Part shown: positions 13,067 to 34,909 of the stretch, piece after piece | How positions within the stretch are numbered: the first letter of the stretch is position 1 | Layout of the letters: each line of letters opens with the position of its first letter | From: an uncultured Nitrospiraceae bacterium | GTDB taxonomy: Bacteria; Nitrospirota; Thermodesulfovibrionia; Thermodesulfovibrionales; Dissulfurispiraceae | DNA: 38,303 nucleotides | Direction of reading: 5' to 3' | NCBI GenBank assembly: GCA_947085205.1 | Contig: CAMTVO010000024.1 | Coordinates: 1-38,303 of the forward strand | Made by a program: the position numbers and the translations under genes | Notes under the pieces: generated by a model | Databases searched by the model: none | Told to the model about the DNA's origin: nothing | Seen by the model: only the letters and a program-made list of their open reading frames with translations

Positions 13067-13861
13067 CTACTCTTCGTAGACTTTTTGAATCTTTTTCTTT
13101 TCGGGCGGAAGAATAACGTTGACCGAAAACATCAGCCTGTAATCGGGGGTTCTATTCTTAATATTAAAACCGGCTCCGACAGTCGTATACAGATAATCGG
13201 TGGTTGCTATTCTGTATCCGAGCCTCCATTCAACCATGTCTATCTTGTTTTTAAAGTAATTCTTTTTCCCCACAATCTCTGCAAGCACTTTCGAGTCATG
13301 TGTTACAGCAAGCTCCGCGCCAAGATTAACGGAATATTCATCTTTAAGTCCCTGTTTCTCCGGCTTGGAATAAAATGCGTTCAGATGTCCCTTGAAAGGC
13401 CCGACCTTTTTTGTCAGAAGTATTCCTCCGCCGACCCTTCCGTCGGTGCTGAAATCATCCTTGCCTGACGGAGCGGATACCGTCAGAACATATGCAAATG
13501 CAGGTTCATAGTAGCCTTCATCCATAATTCTATGCTTAATCCCCAGACTTACATCTTCAAAGCCGTCTATCTTTCCATTCCATTCCGCTACATAAGGCAA
13601 TGTGACATTGAACTCAAATTTGTCGTGCAGGCCGTATGCAAGCTGAAAAATAGTGCGGTAAAAATCGGGGTCATTGGATTTCTCGACGCTCAAGCCGAAT
13701 CCTAATTTATTCTGTTTAAGGCTCTCTGCGCTGAATGTAGAAAATACGCCGTAAGGAGGAAGGGGCTGAAGGCCTTTTACATCAAAAGCAGATGCATCGG
13801 CAAGCAGTATAAAACATAGGAGTATTGGAGTAATGGAGTAATGGAGTATCCATTTTTTCAT
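13067..13861 (-). CDS. Putative outer-membrane beta-barrel protein (MetA-pathway/transporter-like)
   Basis: Signal peptide ending ASA followed by alternating beta-strand segments. Start MKKW at 13861 lies just after a TTGACA-17-TATTCT promoter. Confidence 0.7.
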   Translation of the reverse strand: MKKWILHYSITPILLCFILLADASAFDVKGLQPLPPYGVFSTFSAESLKQNKLGFGLSVEKSNDPDFYRTIFQLAYGLHDKFEFNVTLPYVAEWNGKIDGFEDVSLGIKHRIMDEGYYEPAFAYVLTVSAPSGKDDFSTDGRVGGGILLTKKVGPFKGHLNAFYSKPEKQGLKDEYSVNLGAELAVTHDSKVLAEIVGKKNYFKNKIDMVEWRLGYRIATTDYLYTTVGAGFNIKNRTPDYRLMFSVNVILPPEKKKIQKVYEE

Positions 13862-13933
13862 AGTGTATGAGAATATCAAAAATACCTTTTTCTGTCAAAT
13901 AACAACACTCCAATACTCCATCACTCCAATGCC
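13819..13933. repeat. Inverted pair of 8-bp arrays: (GGAGTAWT)x4 at 13819-13850 and AATACTCC-like x3 at 13904-13927
   Basis: Read directly; AATACTCC is the reverse complement of GGAGTATT. Confidence 0.85.
13870..13898 (-). promoter_or_regulatory. Sigma70-type promoter
   Basis: TTGACA (13898-13893), 17-bp spacer, TG-a-TATTCT (13875-13870). Confidence 0.7.
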
Positions 13934-13934
13934 G

Positions 13935-15095
13935 TTATTTCCCAAACGGACAAATGGGATACCTGCATTCCTTACAGTTGAGGCACAGACCTCCATGCCC
14001 GAGTTCTGCAAGCTCCTTTCTGCCGATACTTTCCCCTGCAAGCACTCTCGGAAGAATCAAATCAAGCACGGTTGTCTTATGATACATCCCGCAGGCGGGA
14101 ATACCGAGGATTGGAATGAGTTCAGAGTTTTGAGTTATGAGTTTTGAATTATTTAATCCCTGAACTCCTAATTCTGAACTCTTAACTCTTTCGATACACG
14201 CTATCAGAAACATTGCACCTGGAAGCACTGCGGAGCCGTATGATATATCAACAGCGCCCAAATTCCTTATGGCAAACCGCGTTACGTCGTCAGGATCGAC
14301 AGACATGCCTCCTGTTGTAATAAGCAAATCAGCGCCTGCATCTATTAATTCTCTGAGTCTTGCCTCTATGAAATCTTCATTGTCAGGCGCATAATATATT
14401 CCGACAATCTCACCATTAAACTCATCTATCTTTTCCCTGATAACCGGCGCAAAGGCATCCTTTATCCTTCCATAATAAACCTCATTGCCTGTAATAACCA
14501 CTCCGGCCTTAGGTTTTCTCAATTCCTTAACTTCAATAACGCCTTTACCTCTGACTTCTGACTTCTGACTTCTGACTTTTTCTGCAATTGCCACTGCTTC
14601 CTCAACCACTTTCCTTTTAACTATAAGAGGAATCGCCCTTGTGCCTGCCACAACCTGTCCTTTTTTAACCACTGTGTTATCATGAAGTGTTGCGCACATT
14701 ATATCACCGAGCATATTAAATTGAGTGAGGGTGCACTTATTAACCTTTAACAGTCCCTCTTTGTCCGCAATTATATTAATCTTGCCCTCCTTCGGTTCTC
14801 CTTCCATCTTTACGCCTTCACCCATTAAGGCATTGGCCAGTGCATATGCAGCGCCATCTTCATGCACCTCGTCATCACCAATGTTTAGAACAAACAGATT
14901 CTCCTTTCCAAGTTTTTGGAGATGACTTATATCCTCTTCTCTGACAATATGCCCTTTTTTAAATGCCCTGCCTTTAAAATCATCCTGCCTTATCTCGGTA
15001 ATGTCATGTGCCAAAACCATCCCCGCCGCCTCTGTTACAGGGATTGTCTTAACGCCGAGCCTGCTCCTCGTATCGGAGCCCTGAATATCGCACAT
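13935..15095 (-). CDS. MoeA-like molybdopterin-binding protein
   Basis: GMVLAHDIT, ITGNEVY, TTGGMSVDPDDVT and GHGGLCLNCKEC motifs; two repeat-derived insertions. Confidence 0.88.
   Translation of the reverse strand: MCDIQGSDTRSRLGVKTIPVTEAAGMVLAHDITEIRQDDFKGRAFKKGHIVREEDISHLQKLGKENLFVLNIGDDEVHEDGAAYALANALMGEGVKMEGEPKEGKINIIADKEGLLKVNKCTLTQFNMLGDIMCATLHDNTVVKKGQVVAGTRAIPLIVKRKVVEEAVAIAEKVRSQKSEVRGKGVIEVKELRKPKAGVVITGNEVYYGRIKDAFAPVIREKIDEFNGEIVGIYYAPDNEDFIEARLRELIDAGADLLITTGGMSVDPDDVTRFAIRNLGAVDISYGSAVLPGAMFLIACIERVKSSELGVQGLNNSKLITQNSELIPILGIPACGMYHKTTVLDLILPRVLAGESIGRKELAELGHGGLCLNCKECRYPICPFGK
14118..14188. repeat. In-frame two-armed 7-bp array (GAGTTNN)x5 / (NNAACTC)x4 in the moeA-like gene
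   Basis: The arms are approximate reverse complements; encodes RVKSSELGVQGLNNSKLITQNSEL. Confidence 0.85.
14551..14578. repeat. In-frame (CTGACTT)x4 in the moeA-like gene
   Basis: Perfect repeat; encodes KVRSQKSEVR. Confidence 0.95.
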
Positions 15096-18748: not shown

Positions 18749-18779
18749 CTATTCACTATGCACTATTTACTATTCACTG
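18749..18779. repeat. Degenerate (CTATTCA)x4 array that supplies the carB stop codon
   Basis: ctattca ctatgca ctattta ctattca; the stop TAG is 18770-18772. Confidence 0.8.
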
Positions 18780-21700
18780 CCTCTATGGTATTCTTGTATT
18801 GATTTAATGCTCAATTCTTTTTTCAACAGCATCTCGATGGCCTTAACAACAGCGCTCGCCCCGGAGATTGTCGTTGTATAAGGGATATTATACTGCAATG
18901 CGCTCCTTCTTATGGAGAAAGAATCCTTCTGAGCCTGAGCACCCGTAACCGTATTAATTATGAAGTTTACTTCCCTGTTTTTTATCATGTCAACAACATG
19001 GGGCCTTCCTTCCATAACCTTATTGATTAAATCTACATGAATCCCGTTTTCTTCAAGATATTGTTTGGTCCCCCTTGTCGCAATAATCTGGAAGCCCATC
19101 CCTGACAATTTCTTTGCAATCTCGAGCGTATAAGGCTTGTCTTTGTCTTTCACGCTTATGAATATTTTGCCTGATGTGGGTATCCTGTTTTTACTTGCAG
19201 CCTGAGCCTTTGCATAAGCAAGGCCGAAATCTTCATCTATACCCATTACTTCGCCTGTTGACTTCATCTCAGGACCGAGTATCACATCCACGCCCGGAAA
19301 TTTATCAAAAGGAAATACCGCCTCTTTAACAGCCACATGGCTTATCTCTATCTCCTTTGTGAGTCCAAGCTCTTTCAATGTCTTCCCGACTATCGCCTTT
19401 GCTGCAAGCTTTGCCAAGGGAACGCCTGTCGCCTTGCTCACATACGGAATAGTCCTTGATGCCCTCGGATTGACCTCTAAAACATATATATCATAATCTT
19501 GATTGCTGATTGCTGATTGCTGATTGCTGATTGCTGACTTGACTGCAAACTGGATATTCATCAAGCCTATGACATTAAGTTCCTTTGCAAGAGCCTTTGC
19601 ATGCCTTTTTATTTCATCCACTATGTCCGATGGCAGTGAATAAGGAGGAATGGAGCATGCCGAATCGCCGGAATGAATACCTGCTTCCTCTATATGCTGC
19701 ATCACCCCGCCAATAACAACATCCGCGCCGTCAGATATTGCATCCACATCCACCTCTATTGCGTCTTCAAGGTATTTATCTATGAGAATCGGATGTTCCG
19801 GTGATGCCTTAACCGCCCTCTTCATGTAGTCTATCAGGGATGTCTCATCATAAACTATCTCCATTGCCCTTCCGCCGAGGACATAAGAAGGTCTTACCAT
19901 CACAGGGCAGCCGATTTTATTTGCAACATTCACCGCCTCTTCGCATGACATTGCAGTGCCGCTGTCAGGCTGCTTTAGATTAAGCTTGTGAAGGAGTTCC
20001 TTAAACCTCTTCCTGTCTTCTGCCCTGTCGATTGAATCAGGGGATGTGCCCAAAATCTTCACGCCTTCTCTTTCAAGAGGCACGGCGAGTTTCAATGGAG
20101 TCTGGCCTCCGAACTGGACTATTACGCCTTCAGGCTTTTCCTTTTCGATAATGTTTAAAACATCCTCTATTGTTAAAGGCTCAAAATAAAGCCTGTCTGC
20201 TGTATCGTAATCCGTGCTGACGGTTTCCGGGTTGCAGTTGACCATTATGGTTTCATAGCCAAGTTCTTTCAAGGCAAAGACAGCGTGAACACAGCAGTAA
20301 TCGAACTCTATTCCCTGCCCTATCCTGTTAGGACCAGAACCCAAAATAACAACCTTCTTACGGTTGGTGGGATTTGATTCGCATTCAGTGCGGTAATGCG
20401 GTAGTGCGGTAGTGCGGCAGTCTTTTAAGGAAATATTTTCTGTCGCTCTGTCGCTCTGTCGCTCTATAACACTATAAAACGGTTTTTCATAAGTCGAATA
20501 CATATACGGCGTATATGCCTCGAACTCTGCGGCACAGGTATCAACTAATTTATAAACAGGCTTTAAACCTATGTCATTTCTCATCTGCCTTATCTCCGCT
20601 TCTGTTTTCCCGGTAAGCGCTGCAATCCTTTTGTCAGAGAAACCATACTCCTTCGCCTGCCTTAAAATGTGTTGGAAGTCTGAATGTTCATAATTTTTTT
20701 CTGTCGCACTGTCGCACTGTCGCACTGTCGCACTTATCCTATCTTCCATCTCCACAATCTGTTTTATATTATTTAAAAACCACAGGTCTACCCATGAGAG
20801 ATCATAGATTTCATCTATGCTCATGCCCTGTCTAAGTCCCTGTGCTATATACCATATCCTTTCTGCATTCGGTGTCTTTAATTTGCCTTTTATATCATCG
20901 ATAGTTGTTTCATGCGGCTCAAATCCTGCAGAGCCTATCTCAAGGCTCCTTAATGCCTTTTGCAGAGATTCCTTGAATGTCCTTCCTATAGACATGACCT
21001 CGCCGACAGACTTCATCTGTGTTGTCAATGTAAAATCCGCCTCGGGGAATTTCTCGAAAGTAAACCTCGGGATTTTAGTCACCACATAGTCTATTGTCGG
21101 CTCAAATGATGCTGGCGTTTCCCTTGTTATGTCGTTCCTTATCTCATCAAGGGTATAGCCGACTGCAAGTTTTGCTGCAATCTTTGCTATGGGGAAGCCT
21201 GTTGCCTTGCTGGCAAGGGCAGAGCTTCTGGATACCCTCGGATTCATCTCTATCACAACCATCATGCCGTCTCTTGGATTTAAGGCAAATTGGATATTTG
21301 AACCGCCAGTATCAACACCAATTTCTCTTATAACAGCAATTGCCGCATCACGCATCCTCTGATATTCCTTGTCAGTTAAGGTCTGAGCAGGAGCAACTGT
21401 AATAGAATCGCCTGTATGGACACCCATAGGGTCAAAGTTCTCTATGGAGCAGATGATTACAACATTATCCTTCATGTCGCGCATCACCTCTAACTCGTAT
21501 TCCTTCCAACCCAGCACAGACTCTTCAACAAGAACCTGACTTGTAGGACTCAGCTTTAATCCCTTATCGAGGAGTTCACTGTATTCTTCGATATTGTAGG
21601 CAATGCCTCCCCCAGTGCCTCCGAGGGTAAAGGCGGGTCTGAGTATTGCAGGAAAGCCTATGTGTTCAATTATTTCGAGGCCGTCCTTAATACTGGTAAT

Positions 21701-22144
21701 TGCCGCGCTCTTGGGGACATCGAGTCCTATCTTTCTCATCGCCTCTTTAAAAAGCTCCCTGTCCTCAGCCTTTTTTATAGCAGGCAGTTTTGCGCCTATA
21801 AGCTCAACGCCGTATTTATCAAGGACCCCGGCTTCGGATAATTCAACAGCAAGGTTTAATGCGGTTTGCCCTCCCATTGTCGGCAGAATGGCATCAGGTC
21901 TTTCTTTTTTTATAATCAATTCTAAAATCTCTGCGGATAACGGCTCGATATAGGTTGAGTCGGCAATCTCCGGGTCTGTCATGATTGTTGCTGGATTTGA
22001 GTTCACAAGCACTATCTTATAGCCTTCCTCACGGAGGGCCTTGCACGCCTGTGTCCCTGAGTAGTCAAATTCGCAGGCCTGTCCGATAACGATAGGGCCT
22101 GAGCCAATCAAAAGTATCTTCTTAATATCAGTCCTTTTCGGCAT
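18770..22144 (-). CDS. carB: Carbamoyl-phosphate synthase large subunit
   Basis: [11 protein letters not shown]...[10 protein letters not shown], two ATP-grasp halves and an MGS domain; three repeat-derived insertions. Confidence 0.98.
19500..19534. repeat. In-frame (TGATTGC)x5 in carB
   Basis: Perfect repeat; encodes [13 protein letters not shown]. Confidence 0.95.
20387..20465. repeat. In-frame two-armed 8-bp element in carB: (AGTGCGGY)x4, spacer, (CTGTCGCT)x3
   Basis: Encodes [26 protein letters not shown]. Confidence 0.92.
20701..20732. repeat. In-frame (CTGTCGCA)x4 in carB
   Basis: Perfect repeat; encodes [11 protein letters not shown]. Confidence 0.95.
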
Positions 22145-22183
22145 TCTTACCTCTCTATAAAATTTTTTATTTTTGTCGCAAAT

Positions 22184-22711
22184 TTATTGCCTAAAATAAA
22201 CCATCCTGCTTCCGCCTAAATGAAGGGGGATCCCTGCCTTCTCGCTCCACAAACCTTTCTTCATGTATTTATCATCAGCATAAGCAGAAAGCACCTTGCC
22301 GAAAAATCCATAACACTCTCCTGCATCCACAGCCTTCCACAATTTGCATTCAATATACCCCGCACAGCCATCAATTATCGGAGCTTTCAATGACTTAGCC
22401 ATATTTTGTTTGAGCTTTGCTTTAGCAAATTTATCGGTATCCCTTCCTGAGGTTTTCCCGCAAATCCATAAGGCCTTCAGCATTTCCTTTGTTGGAATAT
22501 TTATCGCAAACTCCCTTGTCTGTCTGATTAACTCTGCTGAATAGCTCTCCTTTGCAACACAGACAACAACAATGGGCGGCTCCTCGCTCACAGGCGTTGC
22601 CCATGCACATGCCATGACATTTGGCTTTCCATTCTTGCTTATACTGGTAAGGAAAAACGCCATCTTTGGATGAAGGAGATGGTAGATGTCTGATTTTATT
22701 TCCTTCAACAT
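22184..22711 (-). CDS. Flavin reductase-like FMN-binding protein
   Basis: PNVMACAW, EFAINIP and CGKTSGRDTDKF motifs. Confidence 0.88.
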   Translation of the reverse strand: MLKEIKSDIYHLLHPKMAFFLTSISKNGKPNVMACAWATPVSEEPPIVVVCVAKESYSAELIRQTREFAINIPTKEMLKALWICGKTSGRDTDKFAKAKLKQNMAKSLKAPIIDGCAGYIECKLWKAVDAGECYGFFGKVLSAYADDKYMKKGLWSEKAGIPLHLGGSRMVYFRQ

Positions 22712-23838
22712 TTTGCCTCCATCATCTCCCTGAATCTTTTAAATAAATGCGTTGAGTCATTTGGACCGGGCCCGGCCTCCGGATGGTGTTGGACAGAGAA
22801 TATAGGCAGTTCTACATGCTCCATACCTTCTTCCGAGCCGTCAAAGAGATTTCCATGCGTGAGCCTCACCTTTCCGCCAAGACTGTTTATGTCAACACAA
22901 TAATTATGATTCTGCGAAGTTATCTCTACCCTTCCTGTCTTTAAATCCTTTACAGGATGGTTGCCTCCGTGATGGCCGAATTTAAGCTTATACGTCCTTC
23001 CTCCCATTGCGAGACCTAAGATTTGATGGCCGAGACATATTCCGAAGATGGGCTTTTTGCCAATGAGTTTCTTTGTATTTTCGATGGCATAGGTTACTGT
23101 CTCAGGGTCGCCGGGGCCATTGCTCAAGAGTATTCCATCAGTGTTCATTTCAAGCACAGCTTCGGCAGGCGTTTGAGCGGGGACAACGCTCACATTAAAA
23201 CCTGCCTCCACAAGATTTCTCAGGATATTGAACTTTACTCCAAAATCATAAACAACAACCTTAGCCATTCCTTCATATCTGTCGCTCTGTCGCTCTGTCG
23301 CTCGAATTCCCCACTTCCAACATCCCTCTTTCCACTCATAGGGCTTTCTCGTGGTTATATCTTTTACAAGATCAATTGCTGATATACCAGGATGTCTCCT
23401 CACCTTTTCAAGAAGGCTTTCAGGATTTAAATCTATTGTCGAAATTATGCCCATTTGTGCGCCGTGATTCCTCAGATGCCTTGTCAATGCCCTTGTATCA
23501 ATACCCTCGATACCCACTATTTTGTTATCTTTGAGATACTCACCCAATGACATATTAGAGCGCCAGTTGCTCGGAAAATCAAGGTATTCCTTGACGACAA
23601 ATCCTTCAACCTTCGGCCCGCCCGAGGATTCAATATCTTCGACATTAACACCGTAATTGCCCATCTGGGTATATGTCATTGTTACAATCTGACCTTTATA
23701 CGACGGGTCTGTGAGTATCTCCTGATAGCCGGTCATGGAGGTATTAAAGACCACCTCGCCGGTAGTCTCGCCTTCAGAGCCGAAGCTCCTGCCTTCGAAA
23801 ACTGTACCGTCTGACAATACAAGCAATGCCTTACTCAT
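22705..23838 (-). CDS. carA: Carbamoyl-phosphate synthase small subunit
   Basis: FNTSMTGYQE.LTDPSY, SNGPGDP, GICLGHQ and HPEAGPGP motifs. Confidence 0.98.
   Translation of the reverse strand: MSKALLVLSDGTVFEGRSFGSEGETTGEVVFNTSMTGYQEILTDPSYKGQIVTMTYTQMGNYGVNVEDIESSGGPKVEGFVVKEYLDFPSNWRSNMSLGEYLKDNKIVGIEGIDTRALTRHLRNHGAQMGIISTIDLNPESLLEKVRRHPGISAIDLVKDITTRKPYEWKEGCWKWGIRATERQSDRYEGMAKVVVYDFGVKFNILRNLVEAGFNVSVVPAQTPAEAVLEMNTDGILLSNGPGDPETVTYAIENTKKLIGKKPIFGICLGHQILGLAMGGRTYKLKFGHHGGNHPVKDLKTGRVEITSQNHNYCVDINSLGGKVRLTHGNLFDGSEEGMEHVELPIFSVQHHPEAGPGPNDSTHLFKRFREMMEAKC
23279..23302. repeat. In-frame (CTGTCGCT)x3 in the carA interdomain linker
   Basis: 24 bp; encodes RATERQSDR. Confidence 0.93.
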
Positions 23839-23858
23839 TTATCCTCCATCTAATCTTA

Positions 23859-25181
23859 TCAATCAAAAATCTTACCTTTGCATATTGTTATCACAGGCAT
23901 ACCTTTCAGGTTCCATCCCTCAAACGGCGTATTTTTACCCTTTGATAAGAACCTTTCCGATTCAACCTTAAAATCTTTATTTATATCCACTATCACGACA
24001 TCTGCATCAGAGCCTGCCTTCAATGTACCTGTATTTAAGCCGAGAATCTTTGAAGGATTAATCGTCATCTTTTCGACAAGCTGCGGCATTGTCAGAGTAC
24101 CGTCCCTGACAAGCTGGAGGCTGAGGCTTAAAGCTGTCTCAAAGCCGGATATTCCTGAAGGCGCATTGTCGAATTCCTGAAGCTTTTCGTCCCTGTGATG
24201 CGGCGCATGGTCGGTAGTTATAACATCTATTGTGCCGTCCCTCAACCCTTCCTTTATTGCCTCAACATCCCTTTGTATCCTCAAAGGCGGATTGACCTTT
24301 GCATTGGTATTGTAGTCTCTCACTGCATCCTCTGTGATTGCAAAGTAATGAGGGCACGTCTCTGCCGTTACATTTACGCCCCTCTCCTTTGCCTGTCTGA
24401 TAACTCTAACAGAGCCTTCTGTCGAGACATGGGCAATATGAAGCCTTCCGCCGGTATGCTCTGCAAGGATAACGTCCCGTGCGACCATCACGTCTTCGGA
24501 AGCCGAAGGAATGCCCTTTAAACCCATCTGCGCAGAAAGCCTTCCTTCATTCATCGAGCCGCCTTCCGCAAGGCTTATGTCTTCGCAATGGGAAATAATC
24601 GGCACATTAAATGTCTTTGAATATTCCAATGCCCTTCTCATTATAAGGCTGTTTATGACAGGCCAACCGTCGTCTGAAAATGCAATGCAGCCTGCGCCAA
24701 TCATCATTCCGAATTCGGCAAGCTCTCCGCCTTTCTGCCCTTTTGTTATTGCGCCGATAGGATAAACAGAACATACCCCCTCTTCCAGAGCCTTTTTAAC
24801 AATAAATCCGGTTACAACCGCATTATCATTTACAGGATTAGTATTTGGCATGCAGCATACGGATGTAATGCCTCCCCTCACAGCAGCCATAGTGCCAGTC
24901 TTGATTGTCTCTTTGTATTCAAATCCCGGCTCCCTAAGATGTGTATGCATGTCAACAAGGCCCGGCAATACATATAAGCCTGTTGCATCAATAGTGCGGC
25001 AGTGCGGCAGTGCGGCAGTGCGATAGTTTTTTAAAGAATTATCTTTTTCCTTATTGACTGTCGCTCTATCGCTCTGTCGCACTATTTTGACTATCTTCCC
25101 ATCCTCTATAAGAACATCTCCGAGGCCGTCAATCTTCTGAGAGGGGTCTATTATGTGTCCATTCTTAATTAATATATTCAC
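23859..25181 (-). CDS. pyrC: Dihydroorotase
   Basis: PGLVDMHTHLREPG, MPNTNP, KVNPPLR and TDHAPH motifs. Confidence 0.97.
   Translation of the reverse strand: MNILIKNGHIIDPSQKIDGLGDVLIEDGKIVKIVRQSDRATVNKEKDNSLKNYRTAALPHCRTIDATGLYVLPGLVDMHTHLREPGFEYKETIKTGTMAAVRGGITSVCCMPNTNPVNDNAVVTGFIVKKALEEGVCSVYPIGAITKGQKGGELAEFGMMIGAGCIAFSDDGWPVINSLIMRRALEYSKTFNVPIISHCEDISLAEGGSMNEGRLSAQMGLKGIPSASEDVMVARDVILAEHTGGRLHIAHVSTEGSVRVIRQAKERGVNVTAETCPHYFAITEDAVRDYNTNAKVNPPLRIQRDVEAIKEGLRDGTIDVITTDHAPHHRDEKLQEFDNAPSGISGFETALSLSLQLVRDGTLTMPQLVEKMTINPSKILGLNTGTLKAGSDADVVIVDINKDFKVESERFLSKGKNTPFEGWNLKGMPVITICKGKIFD
24993..25083. repeat. In-frame two-armed 8-bp element in pyrC: (AGTGCGGC)x3-4, spacer, (CTRTCGCW)x3
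   Basis: Encodes VRQSDRATVNKEKDNSLKNYRTAALPHCRT; same design as the carB copy. Confidence 0.92.
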
Positions 25182-26094: not shown

Positions 26095-26633
26095 TCCTTT
26101 GTCTGTAACACCACTTTGTCTTCAAACCCTTCTTCCTCAAGCTGAACCTCGATGCTCTCTATGCTTGAGGTAGGAATATTCTTACCGACATAATCAGCCC
26201 TTATGGGCAATTCCCTGTGTCCCCTGTCGACAAGCACAGCAAGCTGTATCTGGGCAGGTCTTCCGAAATCCATGAGTGCATCCATTGCCGCCCTTATGGA
26301 ACGGCCTGTAAAAAGCACATCATCCACAAGTACTACTTTTTTATCCGTTATATCGCAGGGCATCTCTGTCTTTCTGACAACGGGCTGCTCTTTTCTTATG
26401 CCAATGTCATCCCTGTAAAGGGATATATCAAGGGAGCCTACTATAATATCAGCATTCTCTATGTCTTTTATTTTTACGGCAAGCCTTTTTGCAAGATGCA
26501 CCCCTCCGCGCTGTATTCCTACAAGGCAGAGGTTTTCAGTGCCCTTGTTCTTTTCGATGATCTCATGGGCTATCCTCGAAAGTATCCTTTCGATATCCTT
26601 TTTATTAAGAAGTTCTTTATTCATTTTAGACAT
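26091..26633 (-). CDS. pyrR: Pyr operon attenuation regulator / UPRTase
   Basis: [26 protein letters not shown] and DRGHRELPI motifs. Start moved to ATG 26633 (or 26624) because the upstream extension is the attenuator. Confidence 0.95.
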
Positions 26634-26667
26634 AAAAAAAAGCCTTCCCCTGTCTTCAGAGGAAGGC
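26634..26667 (-). terminator. Attenuator terminator in the pyrR leader
   Basis: GCCTTCCTCTG-AAGA-CAGGGGAAGGC followed by a U8 tract. Confidence 0.85.
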
Positions 26668-26702
26668 ATATATTATTGAATATTTGTTTCAAGCGATCTC
26701 CT

Positions 26703-26735
26703 ACCTTTTAGCCTCACAGAGCTATCATTAAAGGT
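26703..26735 (-). promoter_or_regulatory. PyrR-binding stem-loop
   Basis: ACCTTTAATGATAGCTCTGTGAGGCTAAAAGGT resembles the UUUAA / ARUCCNGNGAGGYU consensus; TTGACA...TG-g-TTTAAT promoter just upstream. Confidence 0.8.
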
Positions 26736-26786
26736 AATACTATTAAACCATAAATTATTTTATATTGTCAAAAATAATTTTGAGGT

Positions 26787-29125: not shown

Positions 29126-30598
29126 ATGTATATTATCGAAAGGGTCAAAAACACTATCCAGAAATACTCCATGCTCGTTCGTGGCGACCATGTGCTTGTC
29201 GGACTCTCAGGAGGTCCAGACTCGGTATGCCTGCTCATCATTCTCAACAGACTAAAACCTGAGCTTGGCATTAGTTTATCCGCAGCTTATATAGACCACG
29301 GATTAAGGCCTGATGAAATTCCCAATGAGATAGAATTGTGCAGAGATTTATGCAGTTCCCTCGACATGCCTTTTATAACAAGACCCATTGATGTAAAGTC
29401 CTATATGAAAGAAAAAAAGCTAAACAAACAGGAAGCCGCAAGAGAGTTGAGATACAAAGCCCTCGATGAAACAGCAATAGAAAAAGCCGCTGACAAAATA
29501 GCTCTCGGACATAATGCCAATGATCAGGCAGAGACGATAATGATGCGGCTTTTCAGAGGCGCAGGCCCCTCGGGTCTCTCCGGCATACCGCCTGTGAGGA
29601 GTTTTGAGTCAGGAGTTTTGAGTCAGGAGTTGAGAAAAAAAATATCCATAATACGGCCGCTAATTGAGATAGAGAGATATGAAATAGAAAAGTTCCTTGA
29701 AAATGAAGGTATAGGTTTTGTCATTGATTCATCTAATCTAAAGCACGAGTATCTTCGCAATAAAATACGGCATCTCATAATCCCTGCAATCAGGAACATA
29801 AACAAGGATGTCACCCACACACTTTCAAGAACTGCGGATATTTTCAGGGACGAAGAGCGATATTTCAAAATACTCGTAACAAAAACCCTCATGAAGCTTA
29901 TAACCAGAAAAACCTGCAATTCTATCGAACTATTTTTAGGGCCTCTTGAAGGCATGGATACCGTGTTATTAAGAAGGGTCTTAAGGCGCTCCATCGACGA
30001 AACCAAAGCGCTTCACGGAATCGGTTTTATCCATATCGAGGAGATACTTTCCCTTATAAAATCAGGCCGGTCAGGCGACAGGATTTACCTGCCTAAGGAC
30101 ATAAGAGTCATAAAAGGATATTCGACGCTTATTATTACATCGGAAAAGCCGGCGCAACTTAATATACATGCTATGGACGGCCCTGGTGAAATTCTACTAA
30201 AGGAATCATCAATAGTAATTCGGTCTGAAATTATTGAAAATATCTCCGAACTCCGAACGGCTCGGCTGAGCTCGCCGAAGTCTCCGAACTCTAAACTCTT
30301 TTACAGCGATGGTAAAAAAATCGTATATATAGATGCCGACAAGGCGCTTTTCCCGTTGACAATACGAAGCAGACGGCAGGGAGATTTCTTCTATCCAATC
30401 GGTTTTGGAAAGAGGAAAAAGCTTCAGGACTATTTTGTCGACGAAAAGATACCGAGGGATGAGAGAGATGCGGTTCCTCTATTGACCTCGAAAAATGATA
30501 TTGTATGGGTAGTGGGACACAGGCTCGACGAAAGGTATAAGGTTGATAAAGAGACCAAAAGAGTTTTAAAATTAGAAATCAAACCTTTAAAAATTTAG
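29126..30598 (+). CDS. tilS: tRNA(Ile)-lysidine synthetase
   Basis: SGGPDS, GHNANDQAET, IRPL and DSSN...RNKIR motifs; two repeat-derived insertions. Confidence 0.97.
   Translation: MYIIERVKNTIQKYSMLVRGDHVLVGLSGGPDSVCLLIILNRLKPELGISLSAAYIDHGLRPDEIPNEIELCRDLCSSLDMPFITRPIDVKSYMKEKKLNKQEAARELRYKALDETAIEKAADKIALGHNANDQAETIMMRLFRGAGPSGLSGIPPVRSFESGVLSQELRKKISIIRPLIEIERYEIEKFLENEGIGFVIDSSNLKHEYLRNKIRHLIIPAIRNINKDVTHTLSRTADIFRDEERYFKILVTKTLMKLITRKTCNSIELFLGPLEGMDTVLLRRVLRRSIDETKALHGIGFIHIEEILSLIKSGRSGDRIYLPKDIRVIKGYSTLIITSEKPAQLNIHAMDGPGEILLKESSIVIRSEIIENISELRTARLSSPKSPNSKLFYSDGKKIVYIDADKALFPLTIRSRRQGDFFYPIGFGKRKKLQDYFVDEKIPRDERDAVPLLTSKNDIVWVVGHRLDERYKVDKETKRVLKLEIKPLKI
29597..29631. repeat. In-frame (AGGAGTTTTGAGTC)x2.5 (paired 7-mers) in tilS
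   Basis: Encodes RSFESGVLSQEL. Confidence 0.9.
30244..30295. repeat. In-frame (CTCCGAA)n array interrupted by a 24-bp REP-like palindrome in tilS
   Basis: ctccgaa ctccgaa [cggctcggctgagctcgccgaagt] ctccgaa ctctaaa. Confidence 0.85.
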
Positions 30599-33796: not shown

Positions 33797-34909
33797 CTAA
33801 ACCAAATATCCTTCAATCATGAGGTCTTCGCCGACTTTTTTGACTTTTATGTCTTGAATTTTATATGCTGATTCCAGCCTCTGAAAAAATTTGCCGCCTA
33901 TGGCAAGGATTGAGTCCCTGCCGCCGATTATTTTCGGCGCGATAAAAAATACCACCTCATCAACTATCCCGTCCTGAAGTGCGTAGGCATTGAGAGATGA
34001 GCCTCCTTCTATCATTACTGATATGATGCCCATCCCGCCAAGCCTCTTCATAAGCCATTTTAAGTCAACACGTTCTCCTTCAAACTCGATTATCTTTATA
34101 CCCTTGTCAATCAAGGTTTTTATCTTCTGACTCCTGACTCCTGACTTCTGTCTTCTGGTTATCACTATCGTCTCAGGCGGCATATTGAATATCTTGTAGT
34201 CTAATGGCGTTTCGAGATTAGGGTCTATGATAATTCTCTTGGGATTCTTGACCCTTGACCCTTGACCCTTGACCCTCACGGTGAGTTCCGGATTGTCTGC
34301 CTTCACTGTTCCGACTGCTGTGAGTATGGCATCGGCGTTGCTTCTCATCCGGTGGACCACTTTTCTTGCCTTTTCACCTGTTATCCATTTTGATTGCCCT
34401 TCGGGCGTCGCAATCTTTCCATCGATGGTCATAGCTATTTTTAAGACAACAAAAGGCATTCTTGTGGTGATGTATTTTATGTAAGCCTCGTTCAGTTTTT
34501 TTGCCTTATCTTCAAGGATTCCATTAATAACTGTAATGCCATGACTTTTCAACTCTTCTATGCCCTTGCCCGACACCTTCGGATTCGGGTCTTTCATGGC
34601 AATAAAAACTTTCTTAATTCCTGAATTAATAATAGCCTTTGTGCATGGAGGCGTTCTTTTATCTGTGTGGCAACATGGCTCAAGAGTCACATAAAGGGTT
34701 GCGCCTTTTGCCTTTTCTCCGGCCTTTAATATAGCAAGCGCCTCTGCATGAAGCTCTCCTACTCTTTTGTGAAAGTCTTCGGCGATAACTTTGCCGTTTT
34801 TGACTATTAAAGCCCCAACCATCGGATTAGGGCTCGTCATTCCCCTTGCCTTTGAAGCAAGGGTCAATGCACGTTGCATGAAATTTTTATCTTTATCAGA
34901 AACCTGCAT
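33797..34909 (-). CDS. ribD: Riboflavin biosynthesis deaminase/reductase
   Basis: SPNPMVG, HAE, TLEPC...PPC, SKWIT and EGG motifs; two repeat-derived insertions. Confidence 0.97.
   Translation of the reverse strand: MQVSDKDKNFMQRALTLASKARGMTSPNPMVGALIVKNGKVIAEDFHKRVGELHAEALAILKAGEKAKGATLYVTLEPCCHTDKRTPPCTKAIINSGIKKVFIAMKDPNPKVSGKGIEELKSHGITVINGILEDKAKKLNEAYIKYITTRMPFVVLKIAMTIDGKIATPEGQSKWITGEKARKVVHRMRSNADAILTAVGTVKADNPELTVRVKGQGSRVKNPKRIIIDPNLETPLDYKIFNMPPETIVITRRQKSGVRSQKIKTLIDKGIKIIEFEGERVDLKWLMKRLGGMGIISVMIEGGSSLNAYALQDGIVDEVVFFIAPKIIGGRDSILAIGGKFFQRLESAYKIQDIKVKKVGEDLMIEGYLV
34127..34154. repeat. In-frame (CTGACTY)x3-4 in ribD
   Basis: Encodes RRQKSGVRSQ. Confidence 0.88.
34247..34274. 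repeat. In-frame (CTTGACC)x4 in ribD
   Basis: Perfect repeat; encodes RVKGQGSRVK. Confidence 0.95.

Follow-up and report, generated by a model that had tools for sequence, protein, structure and literature searches.

The window analysed here is a stretch of 38,303 nt (contig CAMTVO010000024.1 of the assembly of an uncultured Nitrospiraceae bacterium), and it carries octamer repeat inserts in frame within the genes carB, carA and pyrC. These inserts are best read, with a probability of about 60%, as copies of a gene-less mini-element, a gutted four-helix-bundle cassette which spread as an overwriting patch of DNA and is tolerated in loops of the host proteins. Tandem arrays were located by Tandem Repeats Finder (TRF). 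The two octamer inserts with two arms each and the two single arms reported in a preliminary description of this DNA were real and lay in open frames of carB, carA and pyrC. The features concerned are listed below.

18770..22144, minus strand: carB, host gene, 1124 amino acids (aa), above the cut-offs of TIGR01369 and NF003671
19500..19537, minus strand: in-frame heptamer array in carB (aa 870-882), other word and class but same system (TRF)
20387..20475, minus strand: two-armed mini-element in carB (about aa 557-586), TRF arms 20387-20421 and 20439-20465
20701..20734, minus strand: single purine-rich arm in carB (aa 471-482) (TRF)
22705..23838, minus strand: carA, host gene, 377 aa, above the cut-off of TIGR01368
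23278..23303, minus strand: single purine-rich arm in carA (aa 179-187) (TRF)
23859..25181, minus strand: pyrC, host gene, 440 aa, above the cut-off of TIGR00857
24991..25085, minus strand: two-armed mini-element in pyrC (aa 33-64), TRF arms 24993-25022 and 25061-25085
25027..25057, minus strand: pyrC-copy spacer, which belongs in diverged form to the genome-wide spacer family and reads Ser-Leu-Lys

The pyrC unit consisted of a purine-rich octamer arm, a 31-nt spacer and a pyrimidine-rich octamer arm. With its perfect inverted ends it measured 95 nt (24991-25085), which corrects the earlier figure of about 80-90 bp. The spacer of the carB copy was shortened to 19 nt; the two spacers, first described as similar, were related (local match 14/17, shuffle p = 0.011) but not identical, at 19 nt versus 31 nt. 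The shared peptide RQSDRAT....SLK.(C/Y)RT.ALPH(Y/C)RT of the two-armed carB and pyrC copies was borne out by translation. The proposed fold-back of the arms exceeded chance for both copies on either strand, with z = -3.2 (carB copy) and -5.5 (pyrC copy) against shuffles on the mRNA strand and z = -3.8 and -8.1, respectively, on the opposite strand, while the single arms did not fold (z about -0.5). A weakening of intragenic hairpins on the mRNA strand as an escape from cleavage was considered and rejected; it was true of the two window copies but not genome-wide (11/20). An Rfam scan of the hairpin returned sub-threshold microRNA-precursor matches only, which were judged to be chance.

The copying of a unit, rather than independent slippage, was supported by a second copy that lay, in the same frame, within a gene of the moeA family on another contig (C14:6724-6818 of the own assembly, designated G000) and was identical to the pyrC copy at 94 of 95 nt, and by the recurring spacer family described below (16 copies). 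All 29 other moeA orthologues among the best 30 loci from 61 genomes were without the element and had about 10 ordinary codons there, so that 31 codons now occupy the place of 10. The moeA copy had no flanking direct repeat, its flanks differed between the two sides, and flanking matches amounted to a few bases only. The element's two ends merged with host Ile and Thr codons. Replacement was likewise observed at two gene junctions (3/5 and 2/5 relatives syntenic), where the element had supplanted a gene tail or a different repeat word; at a third junction the flanks were too little syntenic to define an empty site. The orthologue alignments thus revealed no target duplication, and the comparison of three full and empty sites, with host codons replaced in moeA, did not uphold the initial comparison to an insertion of the Rickettsia palindromic element (RPE) type, nor an insertion like that of a MITE (a miniature transposable element with inverted repeats).

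An iterated profile search of the own assembly (65 contigs, 89.7% complete) recovered 16 two-armed copies at E < 1e-11 on 12 of the 65 contigs, together with one weaker copy, so that the possibility of there being no further copies in the genome was removed. Ten of the 16 were intergenic and six lay in open frames, as judged by crude calls of open reading frames (ORFs), and copies sat in either orientation relative to host transcription. The two-armed class was one among 305 heptamer and 71 octamer arrays of this genome, where a single codon shuffle yielded 1 and 0, respectively, and 72 close inverted array pairs were present against none in two shuffles. A 20-nt arm-spacer motif occurred 13 times here and once in 400 other genomes, which therefore indicates lineage-specific amplification. 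The octamer class comprised 31 loci on 20 contigs in a list compiled by hand, four of which fell within 4.7 kb, above chance (p = 0.002). The claim that all insertions belong to one operon is thus true within the window, but the class is genome-wide; the clustering taken as a sign of local propagation is real, although not exclusive to the operon, and permissive sites explain part of it, because in most relatives these loops contain different repeat words. A purine-arm-first polarity was dropped as an absolute rule, since it held in 30/30 close pairs at a strict threshold but in 57/72 at a laxer one.

The suggested link to four-helix-bundle genes was supported by a locus with the exact arms, L081, and by spacers matching its 3' end. 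L081 was the one four-helix-bundle locus, among 24 listed from 10 relatives, with the exact octamer class on both sides. Its protein belonged to TIGR02436 (117 bits versus a cut-off of 24), and its last codons read KLLWKFKRSL-stop, with the arm beginning directly after. Across the gene, inverted word matches exceeded direct ones in 51 of 69 four-helix-bundle loci. Two gene-less copies in genome G151 each matched the gene tail plus arm of L081 at 41/45 nt, and locus L196 was an intermediate that kept both arms and about 110 nt of the 3' end of the gene. Among the spacers of the own genome, 11 of the 15 parsed matched the L081 tail at shuffle p < 0.05 (p <= 0.0015 in eight cases). Three spacers read KLWKIYSL*, KLWKIYSLK and KLWKNFSLK against KLLWKFKRSL* of the gene. 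An earlier candidate, the spacer as the start of a four-helix-bundle gene, was replaced by this gene-tail match. The Ser-Leu-stop was kept in 8/10 intergenic copies (7 parsed, 1 by eye) and in 0/5 parsed in-ORF copies, and the pyrC, moeA and carB spacers read Ser-Leu-Lys. The shared SLK peptide thus probably represents the last two codons of the parent with the stop lost, as judged from the sequences. Because the spacer matches the end of a gene flanked by the same arms, the mini-element is likely to have arisen from the cassette by internal deletion down to the last codons of the gene.

Several results weigh against this derivation and against the mobility assumed with it. Compared directly with the L081 tail, the spacer of the pyrC and moeA copies was not significant (p = 0.93) and that of carB was marginal (p = 0.054); the link to the tail runs via a typical copy of the family, to which the pyrC spacer matched at p = 0.0002 and the carB spacer at p = 0.016. 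The cognate gene was absent from the assembly (89.7% complete), where the best hit reached 41% over 82 aa. The two intact four-helix-bundle genes of the own genome have other arms and left no gene-tail remnants detectable by blastn, for which reason the tail origin is established for this octamer class only. The intergenic copies are closely related, so the stop-codon contrast does not represent 10 independent events. Over 69 loci, arm words followed the similarity of the proteins (Mantel rho 0.12, p = 0.0005, with a word similarity of 0.30 at >70% protein identity and of 0.02 at <40%), but the effect was small and kin are not independent. Finally, a search of the same assembly for reverse transcriptase (PF00078) gave no matches.

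Some further observations concern the cassettes. Loci L061, L064, L067, L068, L071, L074, L081, L147, L148, L196 and L197 stood directly behind repeats judged by eye to be CRISPR-like; they comprised four-helix-bundle cassettes, one deleted form and one same-armed unit with other cargo, and a shortened repeat often followed them. At L081, L196 and L197 the last six bases of the CRISPR-like repeat were the same as part of the arm word. At L144, L162 and L163, which encode close homologues of the L081 protein, the arm polarity was reversed, with the pyrimidine-rich word upstream, and the genes apparently lay between neighbouring hairpins. The GxxExxY family (PF13366) had no matches in the assembly.

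The same patch was present in other genera. The pyrC-type spacer was found in 3/68 genomes of the family, the own genome included, and in G085 from another family, and apart from the moeA copy it was always located in pyrC. Compared with G015, G173 and G085, which represent three other genera, the pyrC insert showed two differences in 93 nt each (98% identical, same site), and each of these genomes had its own two substitutions. At fourfold sites one difference in 39 was observed inside the insert, while the gene-wide fourfold identity was 0.40-0.55, synonymous sites between these genera being near saturation. The best 90-nt windows of the pyrC insert were 0.98-0.99 identical against 0.82-0.92 for the best background windows, and the tracts shared across genera entered the genes, whose overall identity is 73-79%, for just some 8-25 nt. 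In a pyrC tree of 20 rows with the loop left out, the four insert bearers required at least 3 changes; the concatenated tree was based on a quick search only. Sisters of the bearers held other repeat words (G002 by G173, G021 by G015), and G027 had a spacer-less or one-armed form in pyrC.

The carA arm showed a weaker version of this pattern, with best 60-nt windows 0.98-1.00 identical in G027 and G086 against a background of 0.90-0.97, and G173 had a two-armed version at this site. At the two-armed carB site, the same class with a related spacer occurred in G085; the identity of 0.78 against a median of 0.73 was not unusually conserved, so that this copy is older or independent. By eye, some repeat or palindrome was present at this site in 15/17 relatives, and such loops are therefore standing hot spots. 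The single-arm site of carB also held other repeat words in relatives. Exact-pattern scans for the pyrC-type spacer gave no matches in metagenome contigs and none in viral contigs, and they yielded no vector. In G085, the pyrC (L033) and carB (L056) inserts each harboured a further palindrome, 39 nt long, rich in G+C and unrelated to the first, which lay in frame at one and the same position of the arm.

Mapping on structures placed the inserts in linkers or loops. The pyrC insert lengthens a short turn of the dihydroorotase 3d6n_A, which we take to be an Aquifex-type enzyme, by about 19 residues. In the PyrC model, residues 42-52 and 54-57 had a predicted local distance difference test (pLDDT) score below 50 at a mean of 79, but such values were not unique to the insert, since four other segments also scored below 50. 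The carB copy separates the oligomerisation region from the second synthetase half; in E. coli CarB (1bxr_A) a linker is lacking at this site, and the alignment breaks at residues 547-549. The carA arm directly precedes the glutaminase domain. The assembly held one full copy of pyrC, with the HxH and DHAPH motifs and the invariant residues intact. Because pyrC is single-copy and its invariant residues are intact, the enzymes probably work with their inserts in place.

The mobile patch could be accounted for by the following mechanism. A short DNA patch would overwrite host sequence both within and between genomes, pasted by recombination at matches of a few bases, with arm ends on Ile and Thr codons merging with those of the host. 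The four-helix-bundle protein would give each repeat word its specificity, as the weak but significant tracking of protein similarity by arm words suggests that the protein reads the word. Selection would then retain only copies that keep the frame, contain no stop and sit in a loop that tolerates them, and the insert peptides would be neutral passengers. Our best guess for the catalyst is a host recombination or repair function, which might act on a protein-bound single-stranded hairpin. A linked transposase, which had been proposed for a search, was not supported: the sole Y1 transposase gene (PF01797) had none of these arms in the surrounding 1.1 kb as inspected by eye, Y1 being the only transposase family searched, and the gene that the arms do enclose is of TIGR02436. 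A DNA-level event is favoured over RNA excision, because no reverse transcriptase and no arm-flanked Y1 transposase were found, copies occur in both orientations and folding shows no strand bias. A broader idea, which is tentative and on balance doubtful, is that of a hitherto undescribed, transposase-free class of mobile elements in which each four-helix-bundle subfamily would recognise its own 7/8-base word in tandem and drive copy-and-overwrite of the matching hairpin cassette, with gutted derivatives of about 90 bases homing into the same loops across genera and constantly rewriting surface loops of essential enzymes.

Passive repeat turnover could produce this picture without the four-helix-bundle protein, if the cassette decayed once and its remnants were moved by slippage, quasi-palindrome correction and homologous gene conversion or transformation. 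The variable arm copy numbers, spacer-less and one-armed forms such as that in pyrC of G027, the absence of the cognate gene from the assembly and the lack of a mobilising enzyme in the searches for Y1 transposase and reverse transcriptase agree with it. However, none of the 29 moeA orthologues offers arms as homology and the flanking matches are of a few bases, the cross-genus tracts end about 8-25 nt into genes that are only 73-79% identical, and the counts of the 20-nt motif (13 here versus one in 400 other genomes) imply an amplification specific to the lineage; such turnover is thus considered unlikely. A retained function would make the inserts old and vertically inherited, for example as RNA hairpins which tune or cut the pyr-car message through RNase III, or as protein-binding sites. 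In most relatives these loops are likewise occupied, the class clusters in the operon (p = 0.002), and the accessible part of PMC4990558 describes how RNase III cuts a Coxiella intervening sequence (IVS) in which heptamer repeats occur together with this protein family. This explanation is nevertheless improbable, as sister genes hold different words (G002 by G173, G021 by G015), the mRNA strand folded more weakly in 11 of 20 intragenic pairs and more strongly in 9, copies run with as well as against host transcription, and the PyrR site is elsewhere (26633-26738).

A classical MITE or an RPE-like element mobilised by a transposase in trans would be expected to have the features given in the available part of PMC10969869, several of which are present, namely a length below 500 bp, inverted ends, a stable hairpin, a gene-bearing parent and in-frame fusions. 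Such an element is very improbable given that host sequence was replaced, the youngest copy has no flanking direct repeats, the parent gene is not a transposase gene and the sole Y1 transposase gene is without these arms within 1.1 kb. An assembly artefact is hardly credible. It is true that no read-derived contig ran from one native flank through an entire two-armed copy to the other, and that a low-depth X4 contig linked a flank of moeA, across the repeat, to 11 letters of pyrC type; contig breaks are, however, expected at a 95-nt two-copy repeat. Both moeA junctions were present in X1 contigs at flank depth (X1 may be the source sample), and one of them also in X3 and in X4, the latter from a different study. 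The pyrC insert, moreover, occurs in three other genomes, each with its own two substitutions. The carA arm was spanned by an X1 contig and the single carB arm by an X4 contig.

Among known systems, the preferred reading of a gutted, overwriting mini-element comes close to the IVS of Coxiella 23S rRNA, in which, according to the part of PMC4990558 available, a PF05635/TIGR02436 gene lies between complementary ends with tandem heptamers before the ORF; function and origin of the ORF-bearing IVS are left open in that text. L081 likewise has its four-helix-bundle ORF between complementary ends, while the window copies keep just a diverged gene tail, and the mini-element is related by descent to S23p-bearing rRNA IVS. 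In contrast to the Coxiella IVS, the gene here is reduced to its last codons, the sites are protein genes and gene junctions in either orientation, and the element preserves the reading frame, as would be anticipated if it were translated instead of excised. The two-armed copies were found in carB, pyrC, moeA and gene junctions rather than at the rRNA-gene location of S23p IVS. Paired octamer and heptamer sites of Geobacter metallireducens (PMC2700814) and inverted heptamer pairs of Xanthomonas (PMC4692102) resemble the arms in having 3-5 tandem 7/8-mers, often as opposite-strand pairs, in inter- and intragenic positions, and dispersed arrays of 3-5 units with inverted pairs above chance were also found in the own genome. 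The accessible parts of these papers interpret the arrays as regulator binding sites or G-quadruplex formers, and in those parts neither paper connects the arrays with a parent gene or demonstrates that copying proceeds by replacement.

RPE and prokaryotic MITEs, as far as the available text of PMC10969869 describes them, are also palindromic and multi-copy, with in-frame fusions in unrelated enzymes and a shared peptide. Terminal inverted repeats, a stem-loop and dispersed copies, some of them fused in frame, were observed here as well, but the element is about 90 bp against about 150 bp, its arms are tandem octamers, host codons were replaced without target duplication, and the parent is a non-transposase gene in place of a transposase-coding insertion sequence. 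Repetitive extragenic palindrome (REP) doublets forming hairpins (REPIN) and their REP-associated tyrosine transposases (RAYT) are alike in outline in the accessible part of PMC3337134, where a doublet of about 90 bp has inverted arms, a variable spacer and an arm type tied to a cognate protein. The arms here are not palindromic REPs (z about -0.5), 6/16 copies lie in open frames, the cognate protein is a four-helix bundle and not a tyrosine transposase, and no arm-flanked RAYT gene was seen (1.1 kb by eye, assembly 89.7% complete). Diversity-generating retroelements share the copy-and-replace outcome, and their Avd is a structural relative of PF05635 according to the available part of PMC10053308; unlike in those systems, no reverse transcriptase was found in the assembly, and the L081 protein reached 28 bits against Avd (NF033474, cut-off 80).

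The literature searched, whose coverage largely leaves out subscription journals, contained no description of arms and gene as a mobile unit. The 7/8-mer repeat pairs and the S23p four-helix-bundle protein each lacked an explanation for years, and this locus joins them at the level of sequence, through the cassette of the parent, an intermediate of its deletion, the derivative of 95 bases, a young copy with its empty site, and the occurrence of one patch in four genera. It contributes the origin of the class from a gene tail, an almost perfect copy shared by two genes, for which the empty site is defined, and identity between genera at a single site. A mobility assay is thereby supplied with a concrete donor and target and with a candidate protein. 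If true, the proposed process would be a route that writes new peptide loops into essential enzymes, exchanged between distant genomes in patches of <150 bases.

The genes of the window concerned form one minus-strand run, pyrR-pyrB-pyrC-carA-(flavin reductase)-carB, in which the names pyrR and pyrB rest on reading of the translations. The flavin-reductase-like gene (22184-22711, minus strand) separates carA from carB and recurs next to carA in G086 and G173. The operon head (26633-26738, minus strand) contained a match to the PyrR binding site (RF00515, 51 bits, below the 54-bit cut-off). Further 7/8-mer arrays with other words were present in the window at 13819-13929, 14117-14190, 14550-14578, 29597-29631, 30244-30258, 34124-34157 and 34247-34276, located between genes or, in frame, within the molybdopterin-binding, tilS-like and ribD-like genes. 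Elsewhere in the own genome (G000), copies at the 5' ends of ORFs (C1:64809-64901, C16:4-93 and C47:27747-27822) supplied hydrophobic stretches resembling signal-peptide cores. Three half-elements (C27:272-325, C38:20639-20685 and C1:73114-73175) consisted of one arm and a partial spacer fused to a common unrelated sequence, which is apparently another dispersed repeat.

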